Shown: positions 37,716 through 60,218 of the stretch, in pieces
Layout: the number at the start of each line of letters is the position of its first letter
Position numbering within the stretch: the first letter of the stretch is position 1
Assembly (NCBI GenBank): GCA_041742135.1
Contig: JBGSJG010000001.1
Span: forward strand, 131,151 to 195,150
DNA length: 64,000 nt
From: Patescibacteria group bacterium
GTDB taxonomy: Bacteria; Patescibacteriota; Microgenomatia; UBA8517
Reading direction: 5' to 3'
The notes under the pieces: generated by a model
Told to the model about the DNA's origin: nothing
Database searches by the model: none
What the model saw: the letters and a program-made list of their open reading frames with translations, nothing else
Made by a program: the position numbers and the translations under genes

Positions 37716-39095
37716 TTGAATATGCAAAAACCAGATAAAGAAAAGGTTTGGGCGGAGGTGTTGGCAAGCGCAAGAGTCGCAGTTTCTGACGCCACTTACA
37801 ATACTTGGCTGGTTAACACACATCTGGATTCACTAAGAAAAGTGGACACCAATCGCTATATTGCTGAAATAGGTTGCAACAGTTCATATGTAAAAGCGAC
37901 GGTAGAAAAACGTTACTTCGGTCTTCTGCAAGATGCGCTTATTAAGGTTCTTGGAAGCCCGTGCGACCTGGTATTTGAAGTGAAAGGGGGAGTAGAACAA
38001 ATTGCCAACTTTACACCAGCAGTTACCCCACTTTTTCAAAAAGAGGAGAGTGAGGAAAATCTTATGCGTAAAGTTGCCAGTTCAAGACTTAGGCCGGGAT
38101 TTAAGTTTGAGAACTTTGCCGTATCAGCCACAAATCACATGGCCCAAGCAGCCGCCGAGGCAGTAGCCCGCGAACCCGGCAGCTCATACAATCCACTTTT
38201 TATTTGGGGTGGGGTGGGGGTAGGAAAAACTCATCTGATGCACGCAGTAGGGCACAGACTCCTTGCCACAAGTGATAAACAAGTTCTAGCTGTGACAGGG
38301 GAGGATTTCACAAACGACATTGTGGAGGGAATAAGAAACAAAACAACCCAAGCATTTAGAAATAAATATCGAAAGCTGGATGCCTTACTGATTGATGACA
38401 TTCAGTTCATTGCAGGCAAAGACGCGGTTCAGGATGAGTTTTTTCACACTTTTAACGCGGTTTTGGCAGCGGGGGGACAAATAATCATGACTGCAGACAA
38501 ACCTCCCCAAGAAATTGCGAGGTTAGAGGAGCGCCTTTTGAGCAGGTTTCAAGCTGGGCTAATTGTGGACATTAGCCCACCAGACTTCGAGCTTCGGTGC
38601 GCAATTGTCCAAATTAAGTCAGACGAGAAAGCCTTGGGGATCACGCCAGAGCTGGTACAAGTAATCGCTGGATCGGTGGTTTCAGCCCGCGCCTTAGAAG
38701 GCTTTTTAACCAGACTTCAATCCGAATCAAAACTTAAAAGTCGACCAATAGACATGGAGCTTGTGAGCTCAATTTTAGGCAAAGGAGTGGAGGAGAAAAA
38801 AATGGTAGTTTCAGATCCCGATAAAATAATCGATGCGATTTGCACTCACTACACGATAGGGAAGCGTGCACTACTAGGCAAAAGCCGCAGCCGGCTGTCT
38901 GCTCACCCTAGACAAATCCTTATGTATATTCTTCGAACAGAACTTAACCTGCCACTCGAAGAAGTGGGGAGGCTTGTTGGGGGGCGAGATCACTCAACCG
39001 TTATTCACGGTGTGGATAAAATCACCAAAATGGCCGCGGTCAATGTGGGTATCCGTGAGGAAATCTTCCGGATAAAAGGTTTTTTTGGTGGATAA
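37716..39095 (+). CDS. dnaA: Chromosomal replication initiator DnaA
   Basis: AAA+ Walker A (FIWGGVGVGKTHLMHAVG), box VII/sensor motifs, and a C-terminal DNA-binding domain (…HSTVIHGV…). Confidence 0.95.
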   Translation: MNMQKPDKEKVWAEVLASARVAVSDATYNTWLVNTHLDSLRKVDTNRYIAEIGCNSSYVKATVEKRYFGLLQDALIKVLGSPCDLVFEVKGGVEQIANFTPAVTPLFQKEESEENLMRKVASSRLRPGFKFENFAVSATNHMAQAAAEAVAREPGSSYNPLFIWGGVGVGKTHLMHAVGHRLLATSDKQVLAVTGEDFTNDIVEGIRNKTTQAFRNKYRKLDALLIDDIQFIAGKDAVQDEFFHTFNAVLAAGGQIIMTADKPPQEIARLEERLLSRFQAGLIVDISPPDFELRCAIVQIKSDEKALGITPELVQVIAGSVVSARALEGFLTRLQSESKLKSRPIDMELVSSILGKGVEEKKMVVSDPDKIIDAICTHYTIGKRALLGKSRSRLSAHPRQILMYILRTELNLPLEEVGRLVGGRDHSTVIHGVDKITKMAAVNVGIREEIFRIKGFFGG

Positions 39096-39251
39096 CTTGT
39101 GCAAAAGCGTAAACACTTGTCCACGTTTCCACACGAAATACTATATAAGAAACAAATTGTAAACAAAAATTGGCGAGCCTAGCTTGAAGCTGATATTCCC
39201 CAATCCACATTACTACTACTGCTACTACTATTTAAGTAATGTATAATCCTA
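39096..39251. promoter_or_regulatory. dnaA-dnaN intergenic region, a putative oriC segment with degenerate DnaA boxes and an AT-rich (TAC)n tract (candidate DNA unwinding element)
   Basis: GGTGGATAA at 39087-39095, TTGTCCACG at 39117-39125, TTTCCACAC at 39126-39134, AATCCACAT at 39202-39210, and tactactactgctactacta at 39211-39230. Confidence 0.55.
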
Positions 39252-40349
39252 GTGAAGATGAAAACAACCGTTTTACAAAAAGATTTGAATAAAATATTGT
39301 CTATTTCTTCTCGTTTTGTTTCTCCTCATGCAGCACTCCCAGTCCTTTCAAATTTCAAGATTCACACTAAAGGCGCAAAACTAATAATTGAAGCTACAAA
39401 TCTTGAAATGTCGATCTCTGGCTCAATCGGAGCACAAACCACGGAGGAAGGTGAAGTGGCAATTCCAGCACGCGTTTTAACTGATGTTGTTTCCAATCTT
39501 TCAGGAGAAAAAATTGAGCTTTCGCTTGATGGAGAAAACCTAACTGTTGAATCTGAAGGTTTTAGTGCGCAGGTTTTGGGCTTAAATGCTTCGGAATTTC
39601 CGGAAGTGCCAAGCGCTGCTGATAAGGCTGTTGAAATCCCCAAAGAAGAGTTGTTGAATGCTGTTTCTAAAGTCATTTTTGCAAGCTCGGGGGACGATAC
39701 ACGTCCTGCTTTGGCAGGGGTTTTGTTTTATTTTGAAAGTGAAAACCTTTCTCTTGTAAGCTCTGACGGCTTTAGGCTGTCTAGGAAAATTGTTAAACAT
39801 AAATCGCCCGCAAGCTTTAAGTTGATTATCCCGAAAAATATTCTCCTTGAGCTTGTAAAAATCGGAAAAGATGCCAAGAAGCTTTCCTTGCATGTTAACC
39901 AAGATGATAAACAGATTATTTTTTTAGTAGACGATATCGTTTTATCTAGTAGGTTGGTGGAAGGGGAGTATCCGCCATACGAGAAGATTATTCCCGAGTC
40001 GGGAAGTACGGTGGTAAATGTTTCAAAGGTGGATCTGCAAAAAGCGGTTAGGCTTGCTTCAGTTTTTTCACGCGATGGGGCTAATATTGTTACTTTAGAG
40101 ATTAAAGAGGGGAGTGTGCGTGTTTTGGGCGAAAGCGCTAAGTCGGGAAGTCAGGTTAGTCTTGTTGCGGCAAAGCTCATCGGGCCCGAGCTTTCAATTT
40201 TATATAACTACCGATACCTTGAAGAGTTTCTAGGTGTCGTGAGCGGGGAGAGTGTCGAGATGCGTTTTAACAGTCCCACTGCCGCTGGGGTGTTTCTAGA
40301 TTCTTCAGATGGTTTCTATCTCCACCTGATCATGCCAGTGAAGAGTTAA
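39252..40349 (+). CDS. dnaN: DNA polymerase III beta sliding clamp
   Basis: About 365 aa with the three-domain clamp pattern (MKMKTTVLQKDLNKILSISSRFVS… at the N-terminus), directly downstream of dnaA. Confidence 0.9.
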   Translation: MKMKTTVLQKDLNKILSISSRFVSPHAALPVLSNFKIHTKGAKLIIEATNLEMSISGSIGAQTTEEGEVAIPARVLTDVVSNLSGEKIELSLDGENLTVESEGFSAQVLGLNASEFPEVPSAADKAVEIPKEELLNAVSKVIFASSGDDTRPALAGVLFYFESENLSLVSSDGFRLSRKIVKHKSPASFKLIIPKNILLELVKIGKDAKKLSLHVNQDDKQIIFLVDDIVLSSRLVEGEYPPYEKIIPESGSTVVNVSKVDLQKAVRLASVFSRDGANIVTLEIKEGSVRVLGESAKSGSQVSLVAAKLIGPELSILYNYRYLEEFLGVVSGESVEMRFNSPTAAGVFLDSSDGFYLHLIMPVKS

Positions 40350-41395
40350 TTTGTTAAGCTTTTAGCACTCATAATAAATTTACATAATGTCTTATTGTTG
40401 TTATCTAACACAATCTCTCCAGTTAACATAAATACTGGCTGGAGAAAACTTAAGTAGTTTTCGGTTTTTTCCATATACACAAGCTCGATCGCACTTAGCT
40501 CTATTGGTTTTTGGTTTAATATGTCAGAGTCTGTTATTTTTAAGGTCTGGTCTTGGCACTGGTAGAGAATTGCGGTCTTTGATGCTTGGCGCTCCAGCTC
40601 CTGAACTTTCATGGTTTTTATTGTTTCCTTTTCATTGTATGTTGAGTCGTGTTGAAGCCTTACGTGTGCAACCTCGTATTTGGAGTTTAAAACAACATCT
40701 ATAAGTCCTTCTGAAGATAAAGACAATATCGGATATCCTGCTGCATTTTTAGTAAAGGAAACCGAAACAGCGTTGTAGTCGGTGGAGTTTGGCACAAACT
40801 CATCAGAAATCAACAAAGGTTCGACACGTTGCGGTACCAGATCGCCAACTGGAAATGTTTTTATTCTTTCAAGGAAATCTTGAGCGGAGTTTAAGGCGGT
40901 AGTTTGGTCGGGCAGACCTGTAAATGGCTCATCTGTAAAGGAATATGTCTTATACTCAATCTTGCCGGAATAAGATTCGATCCTAAGCGACCTACTTGTT
41001 TCGGAAAACATAAAAACCTTTGCATTTTCTGAGCCAAAAACAAGAGGTTCACCTTCGAAACCGAAGTCTACTCCGATTTTGTCGACAGTGGATTTATCAA
41101 GTTGTATTGAATCAGACGAGAAGATTGGCAATTGGTCTGGGATTTCGAAATCTGCAAATTTTTCAAAGCCGTTGAAAACAAAGCCTTCCATGCTGGGGGA
41201 CTTTAAAATTGGAAGGCTGGTTATCGCTGGTTCATTGGTGGGAGGTATGTTGCCGATGTCTGTGTCTTTGTCTCTGTTTTGTTTAATGATTAAAAAGATC
41301 AACACTAAGGAACACAAAATTATAGTAGCTAAAAACAAGCCCCTTTTTGTAAATTGTATTTTTGAAATTTTTATCATGGTATTGTGGTCCCACAA
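40346..41395 (-). CDS. Hypothetical bitopic membrane protein, the last gene of the T4SS-like operon (VirB8-like topology)
   Basis: N-terminal TM (LFLATIILCSLVLIFLII), then a 300-aa extracytoplasmic domain. Overlaps the M23 gene by 22 nt, consistent with being in the operon. Confidence 0.4.
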   Translation of the reverse strand: MWDHNTMIKISKIQFTKRGLFLATIILCSLVLIFLIIKQNRDKDTDIGNIPPTNEPAITSLPILKSPSMEGFVFNGFEKFADFEIPDQLPIFSSDSIQLDKSTVDKIGVDFGFEGEPLVFGSENAKVFMFSETSRSLRIESYSGKIEYKTYSFTDEPFTGLPDQTTALNSAQDFLERIKTFPVGDLVPQRVEPLLISDEFVPNSTDYNAVSVSFTKNAAGYPILSLSSEGLIDVVLNSKYEVAHVRLQHDSTYNEKETIKTMKVQELERQASKTAILYQCQDQTLKITDSDILNQKPIELSAIELVYMEKTENYLSFLQPVFMLTGEIVLDNNNKTLCKFIMSAKSLTN

Positions 41396-42373: not shown

Positions 42374-44287
42374 TTATCTAATTTTGGCTGCAGCTACCGC
42401 GACTTGCTCGCTTGAGATTGTTTGCTGTTTTTGAGCCATGTCTTGAGGCCTTGTTGTCACAAATTCATACTCCTCTGGAGAAGCAACAATTTTAATTGGT
42501 GCGTGATGAGGCCCGGCAAAAAGGATACCTTCACCAATGTCGGCGGCAAGTAAAAGTTGACGCTCCCCTTGGGACAAATAAAACACCTCACCAATCTTGT
42601 CGATAGCTGCGGGGGACTGGCGCAAGAGAAGCCTCATGGCGGCGTTAGTTACCACAGCCTTTCCAATGTCATGGTTTAGGAAGTCCTCGACGTCCTGAGT
42701 GATTGTGGTAAGCCCTAGATAGTATTTACGGGCCCTCTTAGCGATGGACCACATAAATTGCGCCGAGTCTTGATATCGCATCATATGCCAGGCCTCATCC
42801 ACAATAAGTAAACGACGCTTGATATCGCGCCGCACCTTTGTCCAGATAAAATCAAGAATGATAAACATGACAACCGGGCGAATGGCGTCTTCTACATCGC
42901 GTACTGAAAAAACTGTATAAGGATTTTTGATATCGATGTTGGTTTGCTGGTCAAACACGCCGACGTAGCTTCCTTTAACAAACTTCTCGATACGTGCCGC
43001 CAAGTCCAAAGCGTCAGTGGTTTCCATGCCGATAAGGGATTTGTATAAGTCTTCAATCAGTGGTGGCTCTAGCTTTTGTGTTTCCGGATCGGAAGTAATA
43101 CCTTTGGCGCGGTAAGCATTCATAAGCGCGCGGTCGAGTAGGGCCTCTTGGGTTGGGGTAATCTCGCCCATAATGACTTTAAAAAGTGAATGAAGCGTTA
43201 GAATTTTAAGACCCAGCTGATCTTCACCTTCGACATATACTTGGCTTAAGTCAAAAGGGTTAATTTTGGAAGGGGAGGACGCGCTAAAAACTATGTACTC
43301 ACCACCCGCAGCCTGAGCCAATGCTTTGTACTCGTTTTCAGGATCAATCACGATTACCTCGGTTCCAAGCATCAAAGAACGTACGCTTTCAAGTTTCACA
43401 AAGAAAGATTTTCCAGCACCTGAGGTAGCAAAAACTACCATGTTGCTGTTTTCAAGTTCAAAGCGATCAAAGATAATAAATGAATCGTTTTGTGAGTTTA
43501 TGCCGTACAAAACTCCACGGTCGCTTGAAAGCTCGGCAGTTGTGAAAGGAAATGTTGTCGCAAGGGAAGTGGTGTCCATATTGCGGCTGACAAGTAATGT
43601 ATCGCGGGCAAATGGAGCTGCTGACGAAAACGCCTTTTCCATGTCAAGAGCCGCAAGCTTTGCTGAAATTAAAACCGAACCCAAAGTGGACTCGATGCGT
43701 TTGGTCACGCTGTCAAGCTCGTCTGGGCTTGTTGCAGGAATTGTTATATAGAAGGAAAACTGGAAAAAGCGCTCGGCACCTTTGACAAGAAGATCTTGAA
43801 GGACTTTAGCGTCTTCAAGCTTAGCTTCTGTTCCGGGGTTTACAATTTTACCCCTTTGAATATCAGTCGACATTTCAGCTTCCATCTCAGTAATCTTGCG
43901 GCGTAGCTCGGACAAAATTTCCTGTCCCTCAACTGGATAGATGAAAAATGATATATCCAAGCTGTGGTCAAAATTTATAATTGGGTTTAGCCAACCCGGA
44001 GATACAAACCTGGGGTAGCCTGAAACATAAAGCGTTCTAAAATAGATGTCGTTAATCTTGACGTGATCAAAGCTTACTTCCATCTGGCTTGGGGCGATCA
44101 GATCAGTCGGGCTCATGGCGCGCTCTTCGGCGGAGTCAAAAGGTAGCTTGACCAATGGCTTTTCGGGTTTGGGAATTTTGTAGCCAAAGTAATCAGAAAA
44201 ATTAGGGTCCTGCTCTACTGGGGCAGGAGGTGTAACCGCTGAAGCGGCAACTGGTTGATTTTTGGTTTTTAGTATAAATAACTTCAT
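42374..44287 (-). CDS. virB4: VirB4/TraC-family conjugal-transfer-type ATPase, C-terminal portion including the ATPase domain
   Basis: Walker A VVFATSGAGKSFFVK and Walker B RRLLIVDEAWHMM (the DEAW typical of VirB4), and …LGLTTITQDVEDF…. The N-terminal part carries the YFRTLYVSGYPRFVSPGWL motif of Gram-positive-type VirB4. Confidence 0.8.
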   Translation of the reverse strand: MKLFILKTKNQPVAASAVTPPAPVEQDPNFSDYFGYKIPKPEKPLVKLPFDSAEERAMSPTDLIAPSQMEVSFDHVKINDIYFRTLYVSGYPRFVSPGWLNPIINFDHSLDISFFIYPVEGQEILSELRRKITEMEAEMSTDIQRGKIVNPGTEAKLEDAKVLQDLLVKGAERFFQFSFYITIPATSPDELDSVTKRIESTLGSVLISAKLAALDMEKAFSSAAPFARDTLLVSRNMDTTSLATTFPFTTAELSSDRGVLYGINSQNDSFIIFDRFELENSNMVVFATSGAGKSFFVKLESVRSLMLGTEVIVIDPENEYKALAQAAGGEYIVFSASSPSKINPFDLSQVYVEGEDQLGLKILTLHSLFKVIMGEITPTQEALLDRALMNAYRAKGITSDPETQKLEPPLIEDLYKSLIGMETTDALDLAARIEKFVKGSYVGVFDQQTNIDIKNPYTVFSVRDVEDAIRPVVMFIILDFIWTKVRRDIKRRLLIVDEAWHMMRYQDSAQFMWSIAKRARKYYLGLTTITQDVEDFLNHDIGKAVVTNAAMRLLLRQSPAAIDKIGEVFYLSQGERQLLLAADIGEGILFAGPHHAPIKIVASPEEYEFVTTRPQDMAQKQQTISSEQVAVAAAKIR

Positions 44288-45018
44288 TTTTTAGTATCTT
44301 TCTCAACCTCTAGTATTACAGGTTCTTTCTTTTCTTTAACTGCCTCGGCTGGCGGGTTATATACGTTATAATACAACTCTGTCACTTGCTCGCTACTTAG
44401 GTGGCGAAGGCGTAGTCCCAAACGTGCAGCCTGGCGAATCAAATGATCGCGTTTAGGAAAAAGTGCAATCTTTGCTTTTTTGACCACAAATTCTTTTGTG
44501 TAAGGAAGTGCCGCGCTTCTTTTAGACAACATCTTAAAAGATTGAGAAAGCCCAAGCTCAAGCGGCGAGAAGGGAATAACCAAAAAGAATCGCTTGCCCA
44601 AGACGTTTCTTTTTTTGGTAGTTTCGATGACGAAATTGTAATAACTATCCATAAGGAATTTCAGCTTGGGGCTCTGAATTTGCTTTGCTGACTCCTTTAA
44701 GTATTCCAAATACTGGGTAATGTCCTTTCTTTGTGTACGGATGACAATTTGAATCGAAAAGGAAAGACTGTTAATAAGCGCGGCATATGCCGCCACGACC
44801 GCTTCTTGCTCGTTATCGCTTAAGAGACCAAAGTTAAGCGAAGTTGACTCAAGAACAACAGCCGCCCCGCCATCTTTGTATAAAACAACCCCGTCAACAA
44901 TATCTGCAATAGGAAGATGAGCTTGAGTGGTAGTCACAAGCGGCCTGTTTGGTGCATTAAAAATTGGAACTTTTGAAAAAACGTTTTTTACAGGTGATAT
45001 TTTTGGCATATTAAACAC
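44284..45018 (-). CDS. VirB4 N-terminal-domain protein, a separate ORF translationally coupled (ATGA overlap) to the ATPase ORF
   Basis: LPIADIVDGVVLYKDGGAAVVLESTSLNFGLLSDNEQEAVVAAYAALINSLSFSIQIVIRTQRKD matches the start of Gram-positive VirB4/PrgJ/TcpF-type proteins. Its stop TGA overlaps the next ATG. Confidence 0.6.
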   Translation of the reverse strand: MFNMPKISPVKNVFSKVPIFNAPNRPLVTTTQAHLPIADIVDGVVLYKDGGAAVVLESTSLNFGLLSDNEQEAVVAAYAALINSLSFSIQIVIRTQRKDITQYLEYLKESAKQIQSPKLKFLMDSYYNFVIETTKKRNVLGKRFFLVIPFSPLELGLSQSFKMLSKRSAALPYTKEFVVKKAKIALFPKRDHLIRQAARLGLRLRHLSSEQVTELYYNVYNPPAEAVKEKKEPVILEVEKDTKK

Positions 45019-46027
45019 TCCAAACCGCGCGGTAAGGCGCGGCAGAATCGGGTAAAGCGTCTTTGGATTTTATCGCAATTGGCATTATTAGCTCCCCAGT
45101 GGTCCTAAAACTTAAAGGCTCAAAGTTTAAACCTTCCTTTTCAATTGCGATTTTGTATTCACCGTTAGGAAGTGGAGTGACGATCATAAAATGCCCAGCT
45201 TTGTTGGTTTTGAGAGCTCGAACAGGGCGACCGTCTGTGTCTGTAATTTCAAGTATTGCTCCTTCAACAATTTTCCCAACTGAATCCATCACTTGCCCAA
45301 CAACCGTGTTTGGCATAGTAGGAGGAGAAGGTGGTGCTGCCTCTGGTGAAAAGTCTGCGTTTTGAGTTTGTGGAGTCGTGCTTTGGGTAAGTGGCGCGGT
45401 AACCACTGAGGTTGTGACTGGTGTTTGTGTAGGAGGCTGGTTAAAGCCGGCAACCGGCACTTGAACAGAGGGAGCAGTTGGAACAACAAGAGGTTGTTTT
45501 TGCTCACTAGGGGCAATCGGTGCCACTGGGGTTACTGGTGGCGGCGGGGTTTCGGCTACAGCAGGAGAGCCCGCGGTATGCTTACCTCCAAGCATATGGG
45601 AAAGCTTGGAAAGAAAATCTTTCTCCTGTGCTTCTAGGTTGCGGGTGGCGTTATCTGCAGGCAAACTTTGAGGCACTTCTTCAACAGGAGTGTCTGCGCT
45701 AGCTTGTGTGTCAGCCGCAAAATACTGATCCGGGCTTCCTGTTTTTTTCCAAACAAACAAAGTTGGTGCATAGATTGACCTAAAAAATGCAACCAACCAC
45801 TGCTCAAGAGGCCGGTCTTGGATGGGCAAAAAGGCAAATGCTGCTCCAGCGACTACAGAAATCACAATCATCGGCCACTTAAAAAAGCCGGGCAAAGGGA
45901 GCGAATAAATTATAAGGCCCAAAACCGCGCCAACAGCAAGTTGGAAAAACTGCTTCAAAGTCATGTCTCCCACAAGCCGGAATTGGTAAGAGCTTATTTG
46001 TTGAGGTACAGGGTGTTGTTCAAACAT
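45011..46027 (-). CDS. VirB3-like two-TM protein fused to a Pro/Thr-rich linker and a C-terminal carboxypeptidase-regulatory-like beta-sandwich domain
   Basis: The N-terminus has 2 TM helices and …DRPLEQWLVAFFRSIYAPTLFVW…, a VirB3/TrbD-like layout directly upstream of VirB4. The linker is PPPVTPVAPIAPS…. The C-terminus (…DTDGRPVRALKTNKAGHFMIVTPLPNGEYKIAIEKEGLNFEP…) is CarbopepD_reg/transthyretin-like. Confidence 0.5.
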   Translation of the reverse strand: MFEQHPVPQQISSYQFRLVGDMTLKQFFQLAVGAVLGLIIYSLPLPGFFKWPMIVISVVAGAAFAFLPIQDRPLEQWLVAFFRSIYAPTLFVWKKTGSPDQYFAADTQASADTPVEEVPQSLPADNATRNLEAQEKDFLSKLSHMLGGKHTAGSPAVAETPPPPVTPVAPIAPSEQKQPLVVPTAPSVQVPVAGFNQPPTQTPVTTSVVTAPLTQSTTPQTQNADFSPEAAPPSPPTMPNTVVGQVMDSVGKIVEGAILEITDTDGRPVRALKTNKAGHFMIVTPLPNGEYKIAIEKEGLNFEPLSFRTTGELIMPIAIKSKDALPDSAAPYRAVWSV

Positions 46028-46135
46028 TTTTTAAGATTTTAAAAATCTAGTATTCTACTATATTCATCTTACCTTGTGAAAGGTTCCTTTCAAGTAGAGG
46101 GATATTTTCACAAAAAATGAGGTTTGTGGTAAAAT

Positions 46136-48568
46136 TTGGCCATGACAACTGAACATGGTGATGATCCGATGTCTCCTAGGCCGGAGGAATCTGAATTTGA
46201 AGCAAGAAGACTTACTGGGGAGAGAGGGTCTATTTATCGAGTGGAACTGTCGCGTTTTCCTGAACTTCTCGATCCAAGGGCTGTGGTGATACAAGGTAGG
46301 GAATTTATCGGGCAGATGGTAGACACCTTTTACGAAACAGGGGAGACCGTGAGTCCATATGTCGTTCAGGACACAAAACGTAGGACCAGAGAGAAGCCGG
46401 AATTATATCGTGACATTATGGAGACAGGCGCTTATTCTTTTACTGACGAAGAGCTGAGAGCTGGCCTAGTAGAGCGCCCACAGCAAACACTATGGATGCA
46501 AGTTCCTGATGCCTATATTGCAAGATTGTCTTTACCTGCTGGTGATCCCCAAAAAGTAGACATTGTTGACGATGGAACAAAGAAATATTGGTTAGTCGAT
46601 GGTCAACGTATGCCCTTTGCAGACAACGGTGAGCTTATGAGGCGAACAAAAGGCGAGAAGGCTGAGTCGAATCGATTTTATGTTGGTGTTGAGTCGCGAG
46701 GTGTTAGCAAAGAAGATGCTCGCAGGAATCGCGAGGTGTTAGCACATTCAATTGAAGGTGTTGGTGTAATTCTTGAAGCTTGGGATAATTTAATACAAAA
46801 AACTCACGAACAAGACCTTTTTGCTGATAGTGACGAAAATTACGTTAAACAGAAATTTTTAAGGATTGGCAAGGTAATAATGAGGGCACGGTATTACGCT
46901 GAAATCTTTAGAGCCCCAGAGACCCGAGAGGGTCTTGCGCCTGCTGGTGCTAAGCTTGAGCAAGCGGTTCTTGCTTGGCAGGATTTGCTTCAAAATAGAG
47001 CGGTTGTTGAAATTGAAATCCCCAATCCTAATAAACCAGAGGAAACTATTAAGGCAAAACGAGTCATGCCAAACGCTCACGCTTATGCCAAAAACTGGGG
47101 AATGCGTGAACTAAACACCGAATATGTTCAAAGTCGTGTTGCTCAGCAGTTTGCTGGTGAGCGAGCCCCTGAAGGAGTGGACCATCAACACTTCCGCCAT
47201 GTGCGAGATAAGGACAATAGGAGAATTGCACGGCAAGCGGCGATTTTGGTGGACCATTTTGATTTAGATGCTGCTTATCCTTTTGACCTAGTATGGGAGA
47301 GAGACGCTTCAGGTAAGATGCGAATAACGAGTGTTGTTGAGGAGGTTGCCTATGTTGACTCTGCAAAACTTACACACCCTACTGCGCGAAGGGTCAAAGA
47401 GCGTTTCGGGGATGTGTTGGTTGTTTCAGGTATTCATGATCGGAGGAACGCGGAGAGCAGGCGGGACCACCCAAGAGCTTCTGGGTCACCCGTAACTCTT
47501 TATACACTTCCCGAATTGTCGAGTGATTTTTTGAATGTCACCTCAGTGGAAGTGGTTGCTTTTAATAAGGGCGACCTTGAAAAACGGAAAACAAATCGCG
47601 AGCAACAAGTTAGAAGAAAAGTTATTAAAGTAACCATAGATCAAAGAGCTTTTGGTGCAAAAGATCCCAAAGAAGACAAAAGAGTTTTTTATGGGACTTC
47701 TGACTCTCGGCGTTGGAGTTATGTTAGAAAAGCGAAAGAGGCAGGAAAGAAATCCGACGACGACGTTTGGGTATACGAGGTAACCGGTTTGGGAGACAAT
47801 CGAATTTGGGATGAAGTGCAGGCGGTAGTTAAAGTGGATGGTGAGACAACAGCGTTTGCAAGGGAAGACATTCTTGCGATTACACCAGTCGACAGCAAAG
47901 GAAAAACTGCAAGAGAACTTATGGCTGATGGGGTAGAGAAACTCGAGGTTGCCATGGGCACAACCACAAATGCGACTGAAATTCCAAAAGGTCTTTTGGA
48001 ATTCTATGCTTGGGCTGGAATTTACGGCGAGTTTACAAGGGAGGATTTCGAAAGACAGTTTGCTGAGTATACAGACAAGGACCCTGCGAAATTAAGAAGC
48101 ATTAGTAAGCAGCTTGGCGTGGCAGTTAATCAACTTGCTAACACACACCAACTATCGCGCGATACTGTAGCTAAATTAGAAGAATACCTGAGAATTTCGT
48201 TAATGGCGGGTTTAGCTGCTGCAATTATAGTTGGTAAAGACGTTAAAACAGGCACTCGATCTGAGGAGCAACCTACTCTGATTCCTTTAGAGGCTCGAGG
48301 TAAAGATAACATATTTATACCACTAAAGAGAGCTATGCTAAAAGCGGAGTTTGTTAAAAGAAAAGAAGGCAAGCTTGGAAACGAACCAGAATGGGCAGAC
48401 AAAGACGAAGAGGGACTTTTTGATTTTATTGTTAACAGCCAAAACTTGGGGCCGATGAGCCCGTGGGACTTGGCAGAAAACGGTAGACGTTTTTTTACTG
48501 ACGCACAACTTGAAGAGCTACGACCTTTGTACAGTATTCTCTTTTTGCCTGGCAGCACAAGGGAATAA
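46136..48568 (+). CDS. Hypothetical 810-aa soluble protein (no TM, no Walker motifs), divergent from the T4SS-like operon
   Basis: Long ORF, rich in Arg/Glu/Asp. No recognisable catalytic motif. GC appears higher than in the neighbouring genes. Confidence 0.5.
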   Translation: MAMTTEHGDDPMSPRPEESEFEARRLTGERGSIYRVELSRFPELLDPRAVVIQGREFIGQMVDTFYETGETVSPYVVQDTKRRTREKPELYRDIMETGAYSFTDEELRAGLVERPQQTLWMQVPDAYIARLSLPAGDPQKVDIVDDGTKKYWLVDGQRMPFADNGELMRRTKGEKAESNRFYVGVESRGVSKEDARRNREVLAHSIEGVGVILEAWDNLIQKTHEQDLFADSDENYVKQKFLRIGKVIMRARYYAEIFRAPETREGLAPAGAKLEQAVLAWQDLLQNRAVVEIEIPNPNKPEETIKAKRVMPNAHAYAKNWGMRELNTEYVQSRVAQQFAGERAPEGVDHQHFRHVRDKDNRRIARQAAILVDHFDLDAAYPFDLVWERDASGKMRITSVVEEVAYVDSAKLTHPTARRVKERFGDVLVVSGIHDRRNAESRRDHPRASGSPVTLYTLPELSSDFLNVTSVEVVAFNKGDLEKRKTNREQQVRRKVIKVTIDQRAFGAKDPKEDKRVFYGTSDSRRWSYVRKAKEAGKKSDDDVWVYEVTGLGDNRIWDEVQAVVKVDGETTAFAREDILAITPVDSKGKTARELMADGVEKLEVAMGTTTNATEIPKGLLEFYAWAGIYGEFTREDFERQFAEYTDKDPAKLRSISKQLGVAVNQLANTHQLSRDTVAKLEEYLRISLMAGLAAAIIVGKDVKTGTRSEEQPTLIPLEARGKDNIFIPLKRAMLKAEFVKRKEGKLGNEPEWADKDEEGLFDFIVNSQNLGPMSPWDLAENGRRFFTDAQLEELRPLYSILFLPGSTRE

Positions 48569-48637: not shown

Positions 48638-50272
48638 CTAAAGTGTTTTTGGTGTTCGATCTCCTCTACGGCCAATGGCCTTAACAACCCCTGTACTACT
48701 TTCTCTTAAGACTTGAGCACCCATACCTTCACCGGTTGACAGCAGAGTTCTGCCGACAGCATTTCTGAGCCACCCTTCACCTGATTGCATCCCTGCTCCT
48801 CTGAGTGCCAGTCCGTAGCCAATACCACTCTTTGCACCACCTGCGGCAGCCCCAATCGCCATTCCAGCGAGTCCTGCTCCAATCATACCTGAACGTTCTC
48901 TAGACATTTGCCCTGATATTATCAAGGATTTAATGTTATTAGCAAGACCTGGAGCCATCAGAAGCAGTGTTGAGCCAATAAATATTGCAAGCAGAGTAAC
49001 ATCTATACCACTAAAGCCGGGGAAGCTGATTTGCCCTGAGTTGACCAAAGGCTCGACACCATACGGATTTCCAGCGACAGTGTTTTCTAGAAGTCCACCA
49101 GATCCGCCCCCCATACCAAAAAGTAAAATATGGGCGAACATTACAGCAACTGAAATAGTTACGAATATAGATGCATGCCCAACAAGAGATCGAAGCATTT
49201 GAGTAAACATATTCCCACTTGGCGAGGCGACATATCCTAGTGCAGCGAAAGGCAAAGCAATAACATGGAGGATAATCATCACATATGTTCTTAGAAATAT
49301 CCAAAATATGCGAATGATGGCCAAAATAATCAATAGAAGCATGACCACCAACACTAGAATGCCAGCCACTATCCCGAGCACCCACCCAACCACTGGAAAC
49401 CCTCCAAAACCGCTTTTAAGAACAATCCAAACAACTGCGAGACCAAAATTCAATAATCCTCCGCCAATATCGTTGATAAGATTAAATATTGCTACGGGAT
49501 CTAGGCTGGATACTCCAGATTGCGACACGACAGCAGCAATGACTCCTTGAATAACATAGGACATATCAATTACAAACCCTGCAATTGCGTAGGAAAAAGT
49601 AATTAAAATAAAACCAATAATTACTCGAGGAATAGCTGAGGTGACACTGACACTTACTTGTGGCGAGATTCTCGCTCTAAACATGACCATGAAGGCTAAA
49701 AGAATAACTGCCAACGCCATAAGCGCGTAAGCCGCATTTCTAGAGGCTGCCCAAAGTTTTAAGATTGGTGCTAATGACCCGAAACCAAATCCTGCCTGTT
49801 GAGCATATGCTGGCTGTATTCCAATATTGTCCATAATTCCAGCAACATACGAAACCCCAGAGACAGGCCTGGTGGTTATCATTAAGTCAGAAAGCCGTGC
49901 AAATTCCAGAAAACCAAGACTCTTGCGAGGGGAAAGGGCGGTATCGGGTGAAGATGCGTCTGCAGTTGTAACACAACCCACAAAGTCGTCAAGCGCTGGG
50001 TGTTGTGTAGCACACTCAGAAATGTCGTGCTCGATGGCAAAATTTATTAGCGAATAAATGACCCACCAAACTTGTGCATGTGTGTATCTTTCACCAAAAA
50101 TTTCATTGTCAGGGATCGCTGTGTTGTTAACTTTGTCATTAAATTGCTGAAAGGTAGGAGCCCACCATTCGGCCTGAGCAGAGACAGTAGAGGGTTTAAC
50201 TGCTCCTATGAGAAAGATGGACGACAGTAGTGCGGCGACTAAGAATTTCTTAAACATCGATGATAATATCAT
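48638..50272 (-). CDS. VirB6/TrbL-like polytopic membrane protein
   Basis: A signal peptide, an about 130-aa extracytoplasmic domain, then at least 7 TM helices and a Gly-rich C-terminal tail. The architecture and its position next to VirB4/pilins fit VirB6. Confidence 0.5.
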   Translation of the reverse strand: MILSSMFKKFLVAALLSSIFLIGAVKPSTVSAQAEWWAPTFQQFNDKVNNTAIPDNEIFGERYTHAQVWWVIYSLINFAIEHDISECATQHPALDDFVGCVTTADASSPDTALSPRKSLGFLEFARLSDLMITTRPVSGVSYVAGIMDNIGIQPAYAQQAGFGFGSLAPILKLWAASRNAAYALMALAVILLAFMVMFRARISPQVSVSVTSAIPRVIIGFILITFSYAIAGFVIDMSYVIQGVIAAVVSQSGVSSLDPVAIFNLINDIGGGLLNFGLAVVWIVLKSGFGGFPVVGWVLGIVAGILVLVVMLLLIILAIIRIFWIFLRTYVMIILHVIALPFAALGYVASPSGNMFTQMLRSLVGHASIFVTISVAVMFAHILLFGMGGGSGGLLENTVAGNPYGVEPLVNSGQISFPGFSGIDVTLLAIFIGSTLLLMAPGLANNIKSLIISGQMSRERSGMIGAGLAGMAIGAAAGGAKSGIGYGLALRGAGMQSGEGWLRNAVGRTLLSTGEGMGAQVLRESSTGVVKAIGRRGDRTPKTL

Positions 50273-53622: not shown

Positions 53623-53961
53623 TCAATTGTAGATGTCGAAGTTGAGAATTGCGGGTACACCAACAAAATTGGCAATTATTTGAACAATCAAAAACGCCAA
53701 AGCCAAAACTACTGTTCCCGCTATGGCATAAGTAATTGTGCTTTTGGCTCCCGCAACTTGCCTTGGGTCGCCACCTGAGAAAATAAAATAGAATCCTCCG
53801 ACAATAAGCATTACAAAAAGGATTATTCCACCAATTGGGAGTAGTGATGAAACAATTCTGCCAAAAACATCCGTGAGAGAGTAGAGTCCCGAAGCGCAAT
53901 TTTCACCGACAGCCCCAGGTGGGCACGGCGTGGGATCTTGCGCAAAAATAATTGATAGCAT
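53623..53961 (-). CDS. VirB2/TrbC-like pilin paralogue 1
   Basis: About 110 aa with two hydrophobic helices separated by the SGGDPRQ loop. Same design as the tandem array at 56.3-58.7 kb. Confidence 0.6.
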   Translation of the reverse strand: MLSIIFAQDPTPCPPGAVGENCASGLYSLTDVFGRIVSSLLPIGGIILFVMLIVGGFYFIFSGGDPRQVAGAKSTITYAIAGTVVLALAFLIVQIIANFVGVPAILNFDIYN

Positions 53962-56357: not shown

Positions 56358-56708
56358 TTACGGAGTAACAACGCTACCAATATTAAAATTCTGAATAATA
56401 TTGATTCCAAAAATTGTGCTAATGAGTTGGGCGAGAGCCCAAGCTGAAAACACTACAACCAAACCGATAAGCGCGCTTGTAACCTGATTCCTAGCTGATT
56501 CAGTCTGGCCTTTATCTCCGCCGGACATAATCCACTTTATTCCTCCGAGAATAAGCATAAAGAAGAATACCAATCCTGCTATAACCAAAATACTGTTGAT
56601 TGCCCAAGAAATCATACCACCAACGGTGATATTGGCAATGGGGCCAAAATTAGTTGGCGCGGTTAAATTTATTGTGTCTTGTGCAAATACTGTTGATAAA
56701 AATGGCAT
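56358..56708 (-). CDS. VirB2/TrbC-like pilin paralogue 2
   Basis: Two TM helices flanking SGGDKGQ. RBS AAGGAGG upstream. Confidence 0.6.
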   Translation of the reverse strand: MPFLSTVFAQDTINLTAPTNFGPIANITVGGMISWAINSILVIAGLVFFFMLILGGIKWIMSGGDKGQTESARNQVTSALIGLVVVFSAWALAQLISTIFGINIIQNFNIGSVVTP

Positions 56709-56732
56709 AATTTAAATTCACCTCCTTTTATT

Positions 56733-56771
56733 GGTTTGCTTTATAAAAAAATAATATTTGTTAAGCAAACC
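56733..56771 (-). promoter_or_regulatory. Inverted repeat (9-bp stem, about 20-nt AT loop) immediately 5' of the RBS of pilin paralogue 2
   Basis: GGTTTGCTT…AAGCAAACC. No U-tract follows on the transcribed strand. Confidence 0.4.
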
Positions 56772-56873
56772 TTAAAATTCAATATACAAAATCTTTCTAT
56801 TATAATGGCAAAAAAGTATTTGTCAAATTTTCAAGAAAGACTATCTATTTATGAACTAAGATAGGGGAGCATG

Positions 56874-57263
56874 TCAAGGGGTACCAACTGTTGCTAGCGT
56901 TGGTATGTCAATAAGAAGAAGATTTATTCCAAAGACATTCTCAATAAGGGTAAAAACTGCCCAAGCTGCAAAAAGTATTACAAGTCCAATAATTGCGTTA
57001 AGAAGCTTCTGTCTTGCTTCTTCTAGTTTGTTTTTGTCGCCTCCCGAGCCGATCCATGCTACTCCGCCAGTCAGGAACTGGAAGACAAAATAAAGCGAAC
57101 CAACAATTAGAATAATTGTTAACATGACGCTAATTAGCGCGCTTAAATACCCAACTCCTCCTGTTGCACCAGGTCCTAATGTAATGAATCGATTCAAATC
57201 ACCAATCGCTGGGTTTTTTATGTTTTCCCCTGGTATTGGTGCGGCCAGTATTGTGCTGATCAT
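56874..57263 (-). CDS. VirB2/TrbC-like pilin paralogue 3
   Basis: Two TM helices, loop GSGGDKNK. Confidence 0.6.
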   Translation of the reverse strand: MISTILAAPIPGENIKNPAIGDLNRFITLGPGATGGVGYLSALISVMLTIILIVGSLYFVFQFLTGGVAWIGSGGDKNKLEEARQKLLNAIIGLVILFAAWAVFTLIENVFGINLLLIDIPTLATVGTP

Positions 57264-57264
57264 G

Positions 57265-57624
57265 TTAAGTTAAACTGAAAATAAGTAAAGGAATATTTAA
57301 GAAAGGAATTCCAAGAATGTCGCCTACAATGTCGATTAAAAATATTGCTGATATAACAACAACAACCCCAATCAAACTCGTAGTAAGCTTTCCCTTTGCT
57401 GCAGCAAGGGCGTTTTTGTCCCCACCAGAGCTTATTATTTGAATTGCTGCCAAGAAGAATTGGATAACAAACCATATAAACGCAATGATCGTGATAACAC
57501 CCAGTGCAGTAGATATTACATCACTAAGCTTGTACACGGAACCTGCTCCTGGATTTTGGCCAAGTGTTCCAGGTAGCGTGAAACCTCCAGATGGAGCTAC
57601 GGGTATGTCTGCTAGTCTTGCCAT
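57265..57624 (-). CDS. VirB2/TrbC-like pilin paralogue 4
   Basis: Two TM helices, loop SSGGDKNA. Confidence 0.6.
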   Translation of the reverse strand: MARLADIPVAPSGGFTLPGTLGQNPGAGSVYKLSDVISTALGVITIIAFIWFVIQFFLAAIQIISSGGDKNALAAAKGKLTTSLIGVVVVISAIFLIDIVGDILGIPFLNIPLLIFSLT

Positions 57625-57972
57625 TTAAGGTGTTGGAATAGATGGGTTGATCAAGAAAGTTGCATCACCAAATATTATTTGGCCAAATATTGCAGCTAGA
57701 ACCAAAGACCCCCCAGCAATCAAAAGCCCAATTACGCTTTGGTATATTTTTGCCCAAGCTGTTTGAACCATTTTAGGGTCATCCCCAGCAGCCAAGAAAC
57801 TGTATCCCGCGAGGATGAAATTAAACAGGGCGTATATGCCCGCAATAACTATCAAAACGTTAAATGCTAACTGAAGCACTGTACCCAAAGCCCCACCTTC
57901 CACAGTCCCAAAATTTTGAGTTGGTTCTGGCTGATTAATGGTACCCCAATTAACTTGTAAAAATTGAAACAT
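57625..57972 (-). CDS. VirB2/TrbC-like pilin paralogue 5
   Basis: Two TM helices, loop AAGDDPKM. Confidence 0.6.
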   Translation of the reverse strand: MFQFLQVNWGTINQPEPTQNFGTVEGGALGTVLQLAFNVLIVIAGIYALFNFILAGYSFLAAGDDPKMVQTAWAKIYQSVIGLLIAGGSLVLAAIFGQIIFGDATFLINPSIPTP

Positions 57973-57975
57973 TTT

Positions 57976-58281
57976 TTAAAAAGGATCGGGAGCAGTCAAG
58001 AAATTCGTCCCACTCCATATCTCTATGATACGTATAACCCAGTAAGCTGTAAAGACCACGACAAATCCTACCAACGCCCAAGTGATAGCCTGCTTGCCGT
58101 TTGCAGCTCCTTTTGCGTCGCCAGAACCAGCGGAAGCGATCATTGAAACTCCACCTAATATAAACAAAAGGACCATTATAATTCCGGAAACAACAATAGC
58201 GGCTGTTACTAAATTACCTATAAAATCACCCACAGAAACAGATCGTCCGAGAGGAGAATTGAAAGTACTGCCTAAATCCAT
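57976..58281 (-). CDS. VirB2/TrbC-like pilin paralogue 6
   Basis: Two TM helices, loop ASAGSGDAKG. Confidence 0.6.
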   Translation of the reverse strand: MDLGSTFNSPLGRSVSVGDFIGNLVTAAIVVSGIIMVLLFILGGVSMIASAGSGDAKGAANGKQAITWALVGFVVVFTAYWVIRIIEIWSGTNFLTAPDPF

Positions 58282-58322
58282 ATTTTGTATATCAAAACTG
58301 ACCCCCCTGCTTAGAGGGTTCT

Positions 58323-58664
58323 CTATAAAAAGGTCCCTCTAAACCCAGGGACACCCAAGAGCAATCCAACAATTTGAACAATCCAGTATGCGCAAAAAAT
58401 AATTACAAATCCTATTAGGGCTTGGGTAAGGCGTGCTTTGGCGCTCTCGAGCGCCTTAGGGTCGCCCTTTGAAGTCATCATTGAAAGGCCAGCGGAAATG
58501 AAAAAGAAAAGAAAGGCTGCTCCAGCGACAAAAAAAATAATATTCATTATCCCCCAATTGAAAAGCCGACCGATTGTGGCGGAACCTGCGAATCTGTAAT
58601 CACTCCCAAGGGCACCTTCAAGTTCTCCATAGTTCGGTAATTGTGCGAGTACAGCATTGAACAT
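58323..58664 (-). CDS. VirB2/TrbC-like pilin paralogue 7
   Basis: Two TM helices, loop TSKGDPKA. Confidence 0.6.
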   Translation of the reverse strand: MFNAVLAQLPNYGELEGALGSDYRFAGSATIGRLFNWGIMNIIFFVAGAAFLFFFISAGLSMMTSKGDPKALESAKARLTQALIGFVIIFCAYWIVQIVGLLLGVPGFRGTFL

Positions 58665-58688
58665 AGTTATATTTTACTATTTATCGTC

Positions 58689-60218
58689 TTAGCTAAACAA
58701 GCCTAAGATGTTTACTCCTACAAATCTTAGCAAAAAGACAGAGAGAACTATCATTAAGAGGCCTCCGATGGATGAAAAAAACAATGCTTTTGAGTTTTCC
58801 AGTTTTTTTGGATCTCCACTTGAAGTGGCAAACATGAAGCCCGCCACAGCAATCAAAAATAGGGCAATGCCTCCGCCCACTGACAATCCCCATTGGATGA
58901 AAAATCTTGTAGTGCTTTGGACTAACTGCAAGGGAATACAGCCGATGGCTGTGTCTATGCCAAGCTCAGTGCCGTCTGAGCACAAAGGATTATTCTGTGC
59001 TGGAACTCCACCTAGCTGTCTGCATAAACCAGAAGTAGGGCAACAAAAGAGCGCTCCGTCGATATCGACCGTGTCTCCTGCTCGATCGCACAGTATTCCT
59101 CCAGCGTTTTCGCAAAATACTTCAGTCGCTCCTTCTGGGGCTTGGATACACTGAGTCGACAGTGAGCAAGTGCCGCCGTTACAGTGTCCAGAAAGGCATT
59201 GGGAATCATCAGTGCATGATCCTCCGAGACCAATTTCTCCACCACCACACCAACAGTAAGTTAGGCCAGGTGTCGCTTGAACTTCCGGTGATCCTTCGTC
59301 GCAATAATATGCGCCACCATCATTCTGGCAGCATGATTGCCCGTATGAGCCGCACCCCGCTGTGTTCCCTGTGACACAACTGCCTCGTAGCCCCGCCGCA
59401 ATTGGTAGCCCAGTTGCACTTGTGGGGTGAATCCAGCACTGACGCAAGCCAAAAAGATCGCAGTCGCTTTGGATAATGTTGTCGAGGCAGGCTTCTTCTT
59501 CAAAAGTTAGGGTGCTACATTGGCCACCTCGATTGCTACAATTAAATACTACGGGCTCAGTTTCGTTTGGAGTGCAAACTCCTGGTAGATCTACATAGCT
59601 TCCAGGAAACTCAGCACACCATTCGGAGGCAGTCATTGACCCGTTGCATCTAAGATCTTCTGTACTACTGCAAGATTGGTTGTTTAAGCAACCATCACCT
59701 TCTAGTCCACCTGTGCGAGGTATGCATTTAAACTGGATGCACTGAAAGGCTGGGTCGCAAAGACTATCTATATCGCAAGCGTCACAAATCAAACCGCCTT
59801 CGACTGGGCTAACTCTTACAAAAACTGCGTCGATGGCTGTACAGAGATTTGTATAGAAAGGGCCTCCATCCCACCTGCGCAAAACGATCGTATTGCCTAT
59901 TGTTCCTTCAACAAAGAGGGAATTGCCATTGTTGTCATTTAATATGGACAACTGGACAGTTCCTCCTGTTTTGACAATATTACCTACGTCAATCCATCTG
60001 TCTGTTCGAGGAGACCAAATGTGATACCTCGTGTTGTCTGCGCTGGGATCATTGGGTGCGTTATTTATTGTGATGTTTACAGATTCGCCAGGATTTACTG
60101 TTGGCGTATTAACTACGATTGCACAACCGGATTGCGCTGAAGCGGTCCGGGGAGCAAGGGCCGCAGTATTTACAAAAAGGCCAAGTCCAAGTAGTAGCAA
60201 AACTAACTTTTTTTTCAT
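58689..60218 (-). CDS. Cys-rich secreted protein (509 aa) with a C-terminal pilin-like two-TM module
   Basis: Signal peptide MKKKLVLLLLGLGLFVNTAALA. The ectodomain has at least 45 Cys. The C-terminus is DTAIGCIP…GGIALFLIAVAGFMFATSSGDPKK…LLRFVGVNILGLFS, the same helix-loop-helix as the small pilins. Confidence 0.6.
   Translation of the reverse strand: MKKKLVLLLLGLGLFVNTAALAPRTASAQSGCAIVVNTPTVNPGESVNITINNAPNDPSADNTRYHIWSPRTDRWIDVGNIVKTGGTVQLSILNDNNGNSLFVEGTIGNTIVLRRWDGGPFYTNLCTAIDAVFVRVSPVEGGLICDACDIDSLCDPAFQCIQFKCIPRTGGLEGDGCLNNQSCSSTEDLRCNGSMTASEWCAEFPGSYVDLPGVCTPNETEPVVFNCSNRGGQCSTLTFEEEACLDNIIQSDCDLFGLRQCWIHPTSATGLPIAAGLRGSCVTGNTAGCGSYGQSCCQNDGGAYYCDEGSPEVQATPGLTYCWCGGGEIGLGGSCTDDSQCLSGHCNGGTCSLSTQCIQAPEGATEVFCENAGGILCDRAGDTVDIDGALFCCPTSGLCRQLGGVPAQNNPLCSDGTELGIDTAIGCIPLQLVQSTTRFFIQWGLSVGGGIALFLIAVAGFMFATSSGDPKKLENSKALFFSSIGGLLMIVLSVFLLRFVGVNILGLFS

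Follow-up and report, generated by a model that had tools for sequence, protein, structure and literature searches.

Introduction

Chromosomal type IV secretion systems (T4SSs) of Patescibacteria combine VirB4, TrsD and PrgI/VirB3 with arrays of VirB2-like pilins, and are often encoded beside dnaA and without a relaxase (Quinonero-Coronel et al. 2025, PMC12102498). In a Saccharibacterium, the only species amenable to genetic work, the T4SS is essential for epibiotic growth (Wang et al. 2023, PMC10633639). These systems lack the usual coupling protein and relaxase, which raises the question of what they move and how it is selected (PMC12102498, PMC12857230), and homologs of VirB6 and VirB8 are reportedly hard to find in Microgenomatia (PMC12102498). 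Here, we analyze a stretch of 64,000 nucleotides (henceforth the window) from a Patescibacteria group bacterium (GenBank assembly GCA_041742135.1, contig JBGSJG010000001.1, positions 131,151 to 195,150), whose T4SS locus is the known chromosomal Patescibacteria system of a Microgenomatia (Woesebacteria-like) bacterium, monoderm and related to the MPF-FATA type. Our subject is a gene of this locus encoding a PrgI-like membrane hairpin that continues, in the same reading frame, into a long tether and a C-terminal beta-sandwich.

VirB3 and PrgI are described as proteins of 10-15 kDa that have two helices, a short extension into the cytoplasm at either end, and a C-terminal helix (PMC12857230 section 12). 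The structure of the R388 system shows VirB3 wrapped around the central VirB4's N-terminal domain (PMC9259494), and fusions of VirB3 to VirB4 exist (PMC12624023). Against this background, we interpret the product of the gene as a PrgI subunit with a cytoplasmic, tethered docking module at the ATPase, a reading to which, taken as a whole, we assign a probability of about 0.55; its component claims differ in strength and are weighed separately below.

A PrgI subunit with a tethered C-terminal beta-sandwich

The open reading frame (ORF) runs on the minus strand from an ATG start (45011..46027; 338 amino acids plus stop), as given in the initial annotation, which had been made from the DNA sequence alone, and its product is 100% identical to a database protein (P0001). 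Residues 6-85 match the Pfam PrgI profile (PF12666) with 34.4 bits against a gathering cutoff of 27, which agrees with the VirB3-like character that had been ascribed to the N-terminal hairpin. There are two hydrophobic segments (~27-45 and 51-69) with Kyte-Doolittle means of ~2.0, transmembrane (TM) segments being judged throughout by the mean hydropathy of 19 residues. The AlphaFold2 model of the protein, for which a 32-sequence alignment served as input, forms a hairpin from helices 24-42 and 47-66 at a predicted local distance difference test score (pLDDT) above 90; beyond it, the model has a 13-residue helix (74-86), a further helix (126-146; pLDDT ~76), long disordered stretches and, at residues 241-321, a seven-stranded beta-sandwich (pLDDT ~90).

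The identification of this C-terminal unit as a CarboxypepD_reg-like beta-sandwich, likewise made in the initial annotation, is borne out by Pfam, AlphaFold2 and Foldseek. Against the CarboxypepD_reg profile (PF13620; cutoff 32.3 bits), the full protein stays just short at 30.1 bits, and the isolated domain reaches 32.8 bits, a marginal pass. In Foldseek comparisons against the PDB, the domain matches carboxypeptidase D transthyretin-like domains (3mn8 and 5aq0 among the matches), transthyretins and CnaB domains (CnaB2), with E-values of ~1e-6 to 1e-4 and a probability of 1.0; a sequence search of the solved structures with the family profile returned spurious low-complexity matches only. The motif GHFMIVTPLPNGEYKIAIEKEGLNFEP, which was noticed at the outset, corresponds to residues 278-304 within this unit. 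The canonical PrgI size is not kept, with ~240 of the 338 residues lying beyond the PrgI module. The spacer between the hairpin module and the domain had been described as a Pro-rich, low-complexity linker of ~100 residues: it is indeed Pro-rich, but it measures ~130-145 residues and is not uniformly of low complexity, as it includes a conserved helix and a conserved proline motif.

A tblastn search of plasmids with the N-terminal module gave weak matches only, four of the six falling on annotated PrgI family genes (Clostridioides, Clostridium, Miltoncostaea). The PrgI genes of Clostridioides difficile and Miltoncostaea oceani (102 and 122 codons, respectively) overlap a gene for a protein of 322-337 amino acids, which is followed by a VirB4-like ATPase, an arrangement that matches the triad of the window; the product of the C. 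difficile gene of this class aligns with the TrsD-like protein of the window (E = 3e-8). The latter, a protein of 244 amino acids, has weak matches to the NCBIfam TrsD (NF041427; 28.8 bits against a cutoff of 200) and VirB4_plasma profiles, and a TraC-like Pfam domain (PF26593) is precomputed on its homologs. Given the Pfam score above its cutoff, the tblastn matches to annotated PrgI genes, the shared triad, a VirB4 of the CD1110 family in combination with the weak TrsD match, a pilin of the PF18895 family and the adjacency to dnaA/dnaN, we conclude that the gene product is almost certainly the VirB3/PrgI subunit of a T4SS of the Patescibacteria type and that its architecture is hairpin-tether-beta-sandwich.

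The fusion is the rule in Microgenomatia-type genomes

A search of 5.8 billion proteins returned 2099 relatives, and the best 120, which were inspected, are all full length (294-383 amino acids), with PF12666 precomputed on most of them and PF13620 on many. Named records among the relatives belong to Woesebacteria, Microgenomates or Patescibacteria, one bearing the NCBI name 'PrgI family protein', and all matches listed for the fusion protein are of the Microgenomatia type. At the level of genomes, 359 species-representative genomes encode a relative. The best 80 of these loci, on which the comparisons below are based, all match from residues 1-7 to at least residue 316, so that the fusion, whose presence in related loci had been left to be checked, is found in every one of them. 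The same holds for the gene order PrgI-TrsD-VirB4 (80/80), the next two genes being homologs of the 244- and 637-amino-acid genes of the window. The tailed PrgI is the rule in Woesebacteria/Microgenomates-type genomes.

Conservation is distributed unevenly along the protein. With the window protein as reference, mean identity across the 80 homologs is 87% in the N-terminal tail, 54% in the hairpin, 65% in the post-hairpin helix, 35% in the mid-tail helix and 15-19% in the tether, and it reaches 67% in the proline motif and 62% in the beta-sandwich (residue conservation, in the text and in Table 1, is counted across 81 sequences). The tether (residues 147-223 with 96-124) has a length of 98-173 amino acids across the family. 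Neither the N-terminal module nor the C-terminal domain has a paralog in the window or in the 80 flanking regions, where the profiles each match exactly one ORF per locus.

That the long ORF is an artefact, arising from mis-assembly, from gene decay or from two genes joined by a frameshift, has a vanishingly small probability, and we discarded this reading. One related contig (L085) does have the gene in two pieces, but this split, a +1 frameshift in an A6 run, is an exception to the full-length fusion in the 80 best loci, the relatives in 359 genomes and the 2099 database relatives, with both end modules strongly conserved. In that contig, a 203-amino-acid ORF for PrgI plus tether and a 123-amino-acid ORF for the beta-sandwich occupy positions 2883-3921; as the break lies at the A6-run frameshift, it represents a sequencing error or a recent mutation rather than a natural two-gene version. 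A Rosetta-stone search for a stand-alone gene of the C-terminal domain yielded no valid candidate, since the short matches among the database representatives were contig-edge fragments and the sole internal split was again that of L085. Separately, a single 901-bp metagenome contig (L083) encodes a protein of 250 amino acids (P0145) in which a signal peptide and an unrelated N-terminal region precede the FSPEAAPP motif and the beta-sandwich; it represents a chimera or else the domain in a rare exported form.

Membrane topology of the tail

The side of the membrane on which the tail lies determines what it could do. In none of the 81 sequences is the hairpin followed by a third hydrophobic segment: over residues 70-100, the best mean is 0.69 on average and 1.28 at most, against ~2.0 for the two hairpin segments, and beyond residue 100 the mean is 1.09, with two isolated exceptions. 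A candidate third TM helix at residues 74-93 was rejected on the basis of its Kyte-Doolittle mean of ~1.0, its Hessa-scale sum of +8.6 kcal/mol and the length of the AlphaFold2 helix, which is only 13 residues. Having only two TM segments, the protein must have its tail on the same side as its N-terminus, and if the hairpin has its termini inside, the tail is cytoplasmic too. Canonical PrgI C-terminal tails are strongly rich in Lys and Arg (e.g., KKHDMPLFKYLNIKRKYNKKNKKLINRRKLN), and are thereby fixed inside. In the present family, the mean Lys+Arg count is 1.95 for the N-terminal tail and exactly 1.00 for the loop; beyond TM2, it is 2.64 over the first 15 residues and 2.16 over the 16 that follow. 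These counts modestly favor an orientation with the termini inside. The extracytoplasmic position that had been predicted for the linker and the domain is therefore unsupported, in view of the two TM segments across the family, the cytoplasmic termini of VirB3/PrgI (PMC12857230 section 12, PMC9259494) and the Lys/Arg-rich canonical tails.

Conservation and composition point to the same side. The N-terminal tail and the post-hairpin helix are the most conserved segments, and it is these that should hold the ATPase, which is equally conserved; a particularly high conservation of the N-terminal tail is what one would expect if it binds that ATPase. The beta-sandwich contains 25.4% DEKR and 24.6% STNGQ, compared to 25.6% and 27.1% in ORFs without hydrophobic segments from the same loci, 21.6% and 30.8% in ORFs with an N-terminal anchor or signal peptide, and 19.7% and 38.5% in homologous repeats of giant exported proteins. 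Its composition thus appears to match that of cytoplasmic rather than exported ORFs, a weak to moderate indication. An indication of similar weight comes from cross-locus identity, by which the beta-sandwich (62%) seems to group with TrsD (58%) and VirB4 (70%), far above the envelope components (VirB6-like protein 33%, 1094-amino-acid secreted protein 32%, M23 protein 32%, pilin 41%). The top Foldseek match (4v4c_B) is pyrogallol transhydroxylase, which we take to be a cytoplasmic enzyme, as we do the dioxygenases among the matches. Together, these lines of evidence make it more probable than not that the tail with its beta-sandwich lies in the cytoplasm.

Several observations weigh against this placement. 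The dense post-TM2 Lys/Arg cluster of canonical PrgI is lost in the window protein. At residues 68-73 (~45809-45826), canonical members (L081, L082) read KKHD... and KRKGR..., versus P-I/L-Q/E-D/E-R-P in Microgenomatia, in which one Arg is kept. This loss may reflect either a changed topology or a changed contact with the ATPase. Moreover, an orientation with the loop inside would agree with the one positive charge that is invariant between the two helices, and with the cluster lost as well, the charge rule alone is a weak guide here. CarboxypepD_reg domains are overwhelmingly exported, and tethers rich in Pro and Thr are a typical trait of regions that span the wall. When the domain alone was searched against 1.84 billion cluster representatives, the fusions were recovered (250-465 amino acids, with the domain at the C-terminus), and the nearest non-fusion relatives were giant surface proteins with 7-25 repeats, signal peptides, and cell-wall-binding and lectin-like domains. 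Finally, the domain was not encountered in any natural fusion with a cytoplasmic protein; a chimeric query of the C-terminal domain and TrsD was uninformative, its 120 best matches being TrsD-only proteins of 209-286 amino acids.

These points bear on an alternative arrangement, in which both termini are outside and the loop is inside, with TM2 serving as a signal anchor and the tether crossing the wall, so that the beta-sandwich is presented at or beyond the peptidoglycan for wall anchoring, support of the pilus or channel, or contact with the host. We regard it as less likely than the cytoplasmic arrangement. The charge around TM2 (+1 before, ~0 after), with the canonical cluster lost, does fit an N-in/C-out anchor; however, the Lys+Arg counts favor termini inside, and the arrangement would put the most PrgI-like and most conserved segments, the N-terminal tail and the post-TM2 helix, outside and leave only a loop of 5-9 residues for the ATPase, contrary to what is known of VirB3/PrgI (PMC9259494, PMC12857230). 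Similarly, the domain belongs to a typically exported family and the 100-170 residues of the tether suffice to cross a wall, but the composition and conservation of this particular domain are cytoplasmic-like. The joining of a signal peptide to the domain in P0145 would be a precedent for export, though it is confined to that single 901-bp contig, which may be chimeric. VirB6 and VirB8 homologs are scarce in Microgenomatia (PMC12102498), and envelope parts may accordingly be unconventional; yet the locus already has exported parts in the 1094-amino-acid protein, the VirB6-like protein, the M23 hydrolase, the bitopic 349-amino-acid protein and the pilins. The same exported components bear on the proposal in the initial annotation that the domain substitutes for missing VirB7, VirB9 and VirB10. 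Monoderm systems of the MPF-FATA type never had these three proteins (PMC12102498, PMC12857230), and they are not to be expected here; there is, consequently, nothing missing to replace, and the proposal finds no support.

A possible docking module at the ATPase

In the cytoplasmic arrangement that we favor, the hairpin would sit in the cytoplasmic membrane with both ends inside and clasp the N-terminal domain of the VirB4/TrsD ATPase, as do other VirB3/PrgI proteins, and the tail would emerge inside the cell, at the ATPase rim that lies nearest the membrane. Assuming the VirB3:VirB4 stoichiometry of R388, six tethered beta-sandwiches would hang from this rim of the ATPase hexamer in a ZipA-like layout, with a P/Q-rich tether between the anchor and the binding domain (see below), and the tether would give each of them a wide reach to the side of the VirB4 barrel and beneath it. 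That the domain (e.g., R267, R270, H279, E260 and D263) and the proline motif are strongly conserved suggests a conserved partner. We predict that this partner would be located at or under the ATPase, where it could be a substrate, an adaptor or the ATPase itself, with the module then serving as a regulator. No coupling protein is seen in the 64-kb window, in which a Walker A scan found no VirD4-like P-loop ATPase and only a helicase-like ORF, a ComM-like ORF, DnaA and VirB4. We tentatively infer a docking or adaptor role for the beta-sandwich, while considering this specific function doubtful.

Carried further, the docking idea would make the VirB3 of Microgenomatia a substrate receptor. Its six cytoplasmic modules would capture cargo, either protein or, by means of the conserved Arg/Lys/His patch, nucleic acid, and hand it to the VirB4/TrsD ring, thereby replacing the VirD4 coupling protein; or, operating in reverse, they would receive host-derived material such as RNA via the T4SS pilus. 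We consider such a receptor unlikely. The main sub-alternative to docking is a structural or gating role, in which the six beta-sandwiches self-associate or bind acidic lipids as a collar or plug that stabilizes, gates or autoinhibits the ATPase ring, with the mid-tail helix lying on the membrane or on TrsD. It shares the topology evidence with the docking model and could draw on the conserved basic cluster of the domain (R267/R270/K273/K276/H279); the transthyretin-like domain in 4v4c_B, presumably part of a cytoplasmic enzyme, has reportedly been suggested to act in membrane association. It would, however, be odd to hold a collar in place by a tether that is variable and 100-170 residues long, and we view this role as quite improbable.

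A folded module that is conserved class-wide on the subunit beside the ATPase offers a handle on what the Patescibacteria T4SS moves and how its cargo is chosen. If cytoplasmic, it is a candidate docking site for cargo or a regulator; if external, it would be a new envelope-spanning element of monoderm T4SSs. More generally, the usual location of a domain family can mislead topology calls when a third membrane segment is absent. The cultivation of a first Microgenomatia strain, in which T4SS-like tubes point toward the host, has been reported (bioRxiv 10.64898/2026.06.21.733656), which makes the question of the tail experimentally testable now.

The T4SS locus and its neighborhood

The segments of the protein and the surrounding genes are collected in Table 1. 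The promoter-like site upstream of the PrgI gene likely marks, as far as a consensus match can tell, the start of a PrgI-TrsD-VirB4 operon, and no terminator-like site was found between the three genes. An Rfam scan of the window returned tRNA-Cys only, with no match overlapping the PrgI gene, and the opposite-strand ORFs across the gene are all of 100 amino acids or less.

Table 1. Segments of the PrgI fusion protein and features of the surrounding T4SS locus, with positions in the window
Feature	Position (strand)	Residues or length	Remarks
N-terminal tail	45950..46027 (-)	1-26	highest mean identity of all segments (87%); within the PrgI Pfam match; aligns with canonical PrgI N-terminal tails
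Two-helix TM hairpin	45821..45949 (-)	27-69	short loop containing K50-W51-P52, each kept in 95% or more of the 81 sequences; from hydropathy and AlphaFold2
Post-TM2 amphipathic helix region	45743..45820 (-)	70-95	RPLEQWLVAFFRSIYAPT...; homologous to the canonical PrgI C-terminal helix; hydrophobicity too low for a third TM segment
Mid-tail helix, LExxEKxFLSKI	45590..45655 (-)	125-146	E135 in at least 95% of 81 sequences; found in homologs by a segment profile
Variable Pro/Thr/Ala/Val/Gln-rich tether	45359..45589 (-)	147-223	disordered in AlphaFold2; no Pfam match
Proline motif FSPEAAPPxPPTxPN	45308..45358 (-)	224-240	directly before the domain; F226, S227, P233 and N240 in at least 95% of 81 sequences
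Transthyretin-like/CarboxypepD_reg beta-sandwich	45062..45307 (-)	241-322	more than 20 positions at 95% or more of 81 sequences, including R267, R270, H279, E260 and D263
Promoter-like site TTCACA-17-TAGAAT	46052..46080 (-)		just upstream of the PrgI start; consensus scan only
TrsD-like gene (VirB4 N-terminal-domain-like)	44284..45018 (-)	244 aa	abuts/overlaps the PrgI stop codon; adjacent in 80/80 loci
VirB4-family ATPase (CD1110 family)	42374..44287 (-)	637 aa	NF045971 conju_CD1110, 374.6 bits against a cutoff of 325; Pfam TraG P-loop; adjacent in 80/80 loci
Bitopic protein	40346-41395 (-)	349 aa	downstream of VirB4
M23-peptidase-like protein	40346-41395 (-)		downstream of VirB4
dnaA/dnaN	37716-40349 (other strand from VirB4)		downstream of the T4SS genes
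ORF without Pfam or NCBIfam match	46136-48568 (+)	810 aa	between the PrgI operon and the VirB6-like gene; no hydrophobic segment
Polytopic protein	48638-50272 (-)	544 aa	signal-like N-terminus; at least six hydrophobic segments; no family match
T4SS pilin	53623-53961 (-)		PF18895
Six tandem two-helix pilin-like genes	56358-58664 (-)	101-129 aa	
Signal-peptide protein with C-terminal pilin-like two-helix module	within 56358-60218 (-)	509 aa	weak PF18895 match

Downstream of VirB4, the M23-peptidase-like protein has N-terminal hydrophobic segments and may play a VirB1-like wall-hydrolase role, and the bitopic protein, whose only match is a weak one to a phage protein, might be a VirB8-like component. 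Upstream, the gene for the polytopic protein is kept ahead of PrgI in 58 of the 80 loci, and its product is a candidate VirB6 analog; a signal-peptide protein of 1094 amino acids is also encoded on this side of PrgI. The intervening ORF of 810 amino acids is present in two of the 80 related loci, lies in a region with a strongly positive GC skew (+0.20) and is probably a lineage-specific insertion. No relaxase is evident in the cluster, although no profile search aimed at relaxases was made.

The VirB4 gene of the window is uninterrupted. Among the related loci, three VirB4 homologs (L006, at 8503-10172, L018 and L069) carry an interruption of ~1.6 kb that falls precisely on the Walker A region (query residues ~276-294) and looks like an intein. 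The same gap precedes the best VirB4 match in L028, L050, L053, L059 and L060.

Comparison with known systems

As a whole, the locus resembles the described Patescibacteria T4SSs in its combination of VirB4, TrsD, PrgI/VirB3 and pilin arrays beside dnaA/dnaN (PMC12102498, PMC10633639). Neither an extended PrgI C-terminus nor a CarboxypepD_reg domain attached to PrgI turned up in term searches of the main texts of these two papers. The system and both domain families are already known, whereas the main texts searched describe neither the fusion nor its conservation across the class nor the topology problem that it poses.

The closest relatives of the subunit are in the PrgI family (PF12666), the VirB3 analog of monoderm MPF-FATA systems, which includes PrgI of pCF10. 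The window protein shares with this family the conserved N-terminal tail motif, the two-helix hairpin and the R/xP-L-x-x-W helix that follows it, as well as the placement of the gene directly upstream of a TrsD-like gene and VirB4, with stop and start codons abutting or overlapping. It differs in that canonical members, of 100-120 amino acids, close with a Lys/Arg-rich tail and extend only 20-35 residues beyond TM2, whereas the window protein has lost most of this basic cluster and goes on for ~240 residues with a helix, a tether and a beta-sandwich. The VirB3 of Gram-negative systems (e.g., TrwM of R388, and VirB3-VirB4 fusions such as CagE) is likewise a small hairpin subunit that anchors VirB4 to the membrane, with one copy per central VirB4, and its C-terminus is extendable on the cytoplasmic side, as the fusions to VirB4 illustrate (PMC9259494, PMC12624023). 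The homology is, however, remote, and the extension in the present family is a tethered beta-sandwich rather than an ATPase; VirB3-VirB4 fusions do not occur here (PMC12102498).

The C-terminal domain shares both fold and sequence motifs with CarboxypepD_reg (PF13620). Members of that family usually occur as repeats or as N-terminal modules of exported proteins; here, by contrast, a hairpin protein ends in a single copy of the domain. No export signal follows the hairpin, and the domain is more charged in composition and unusually well conserved. In ZipA, which is cytoplasmic, and TonB, which is periplasmic, a membrane anchor is followed by a long flexible Pro-rich tether and a small C-terminal partner-binding domain. 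Though neither has a sequence or fold relationship to the window protein, both provide, as an analogy from general knowledge, the same three-part layout of anchor, tether and terminal domain.

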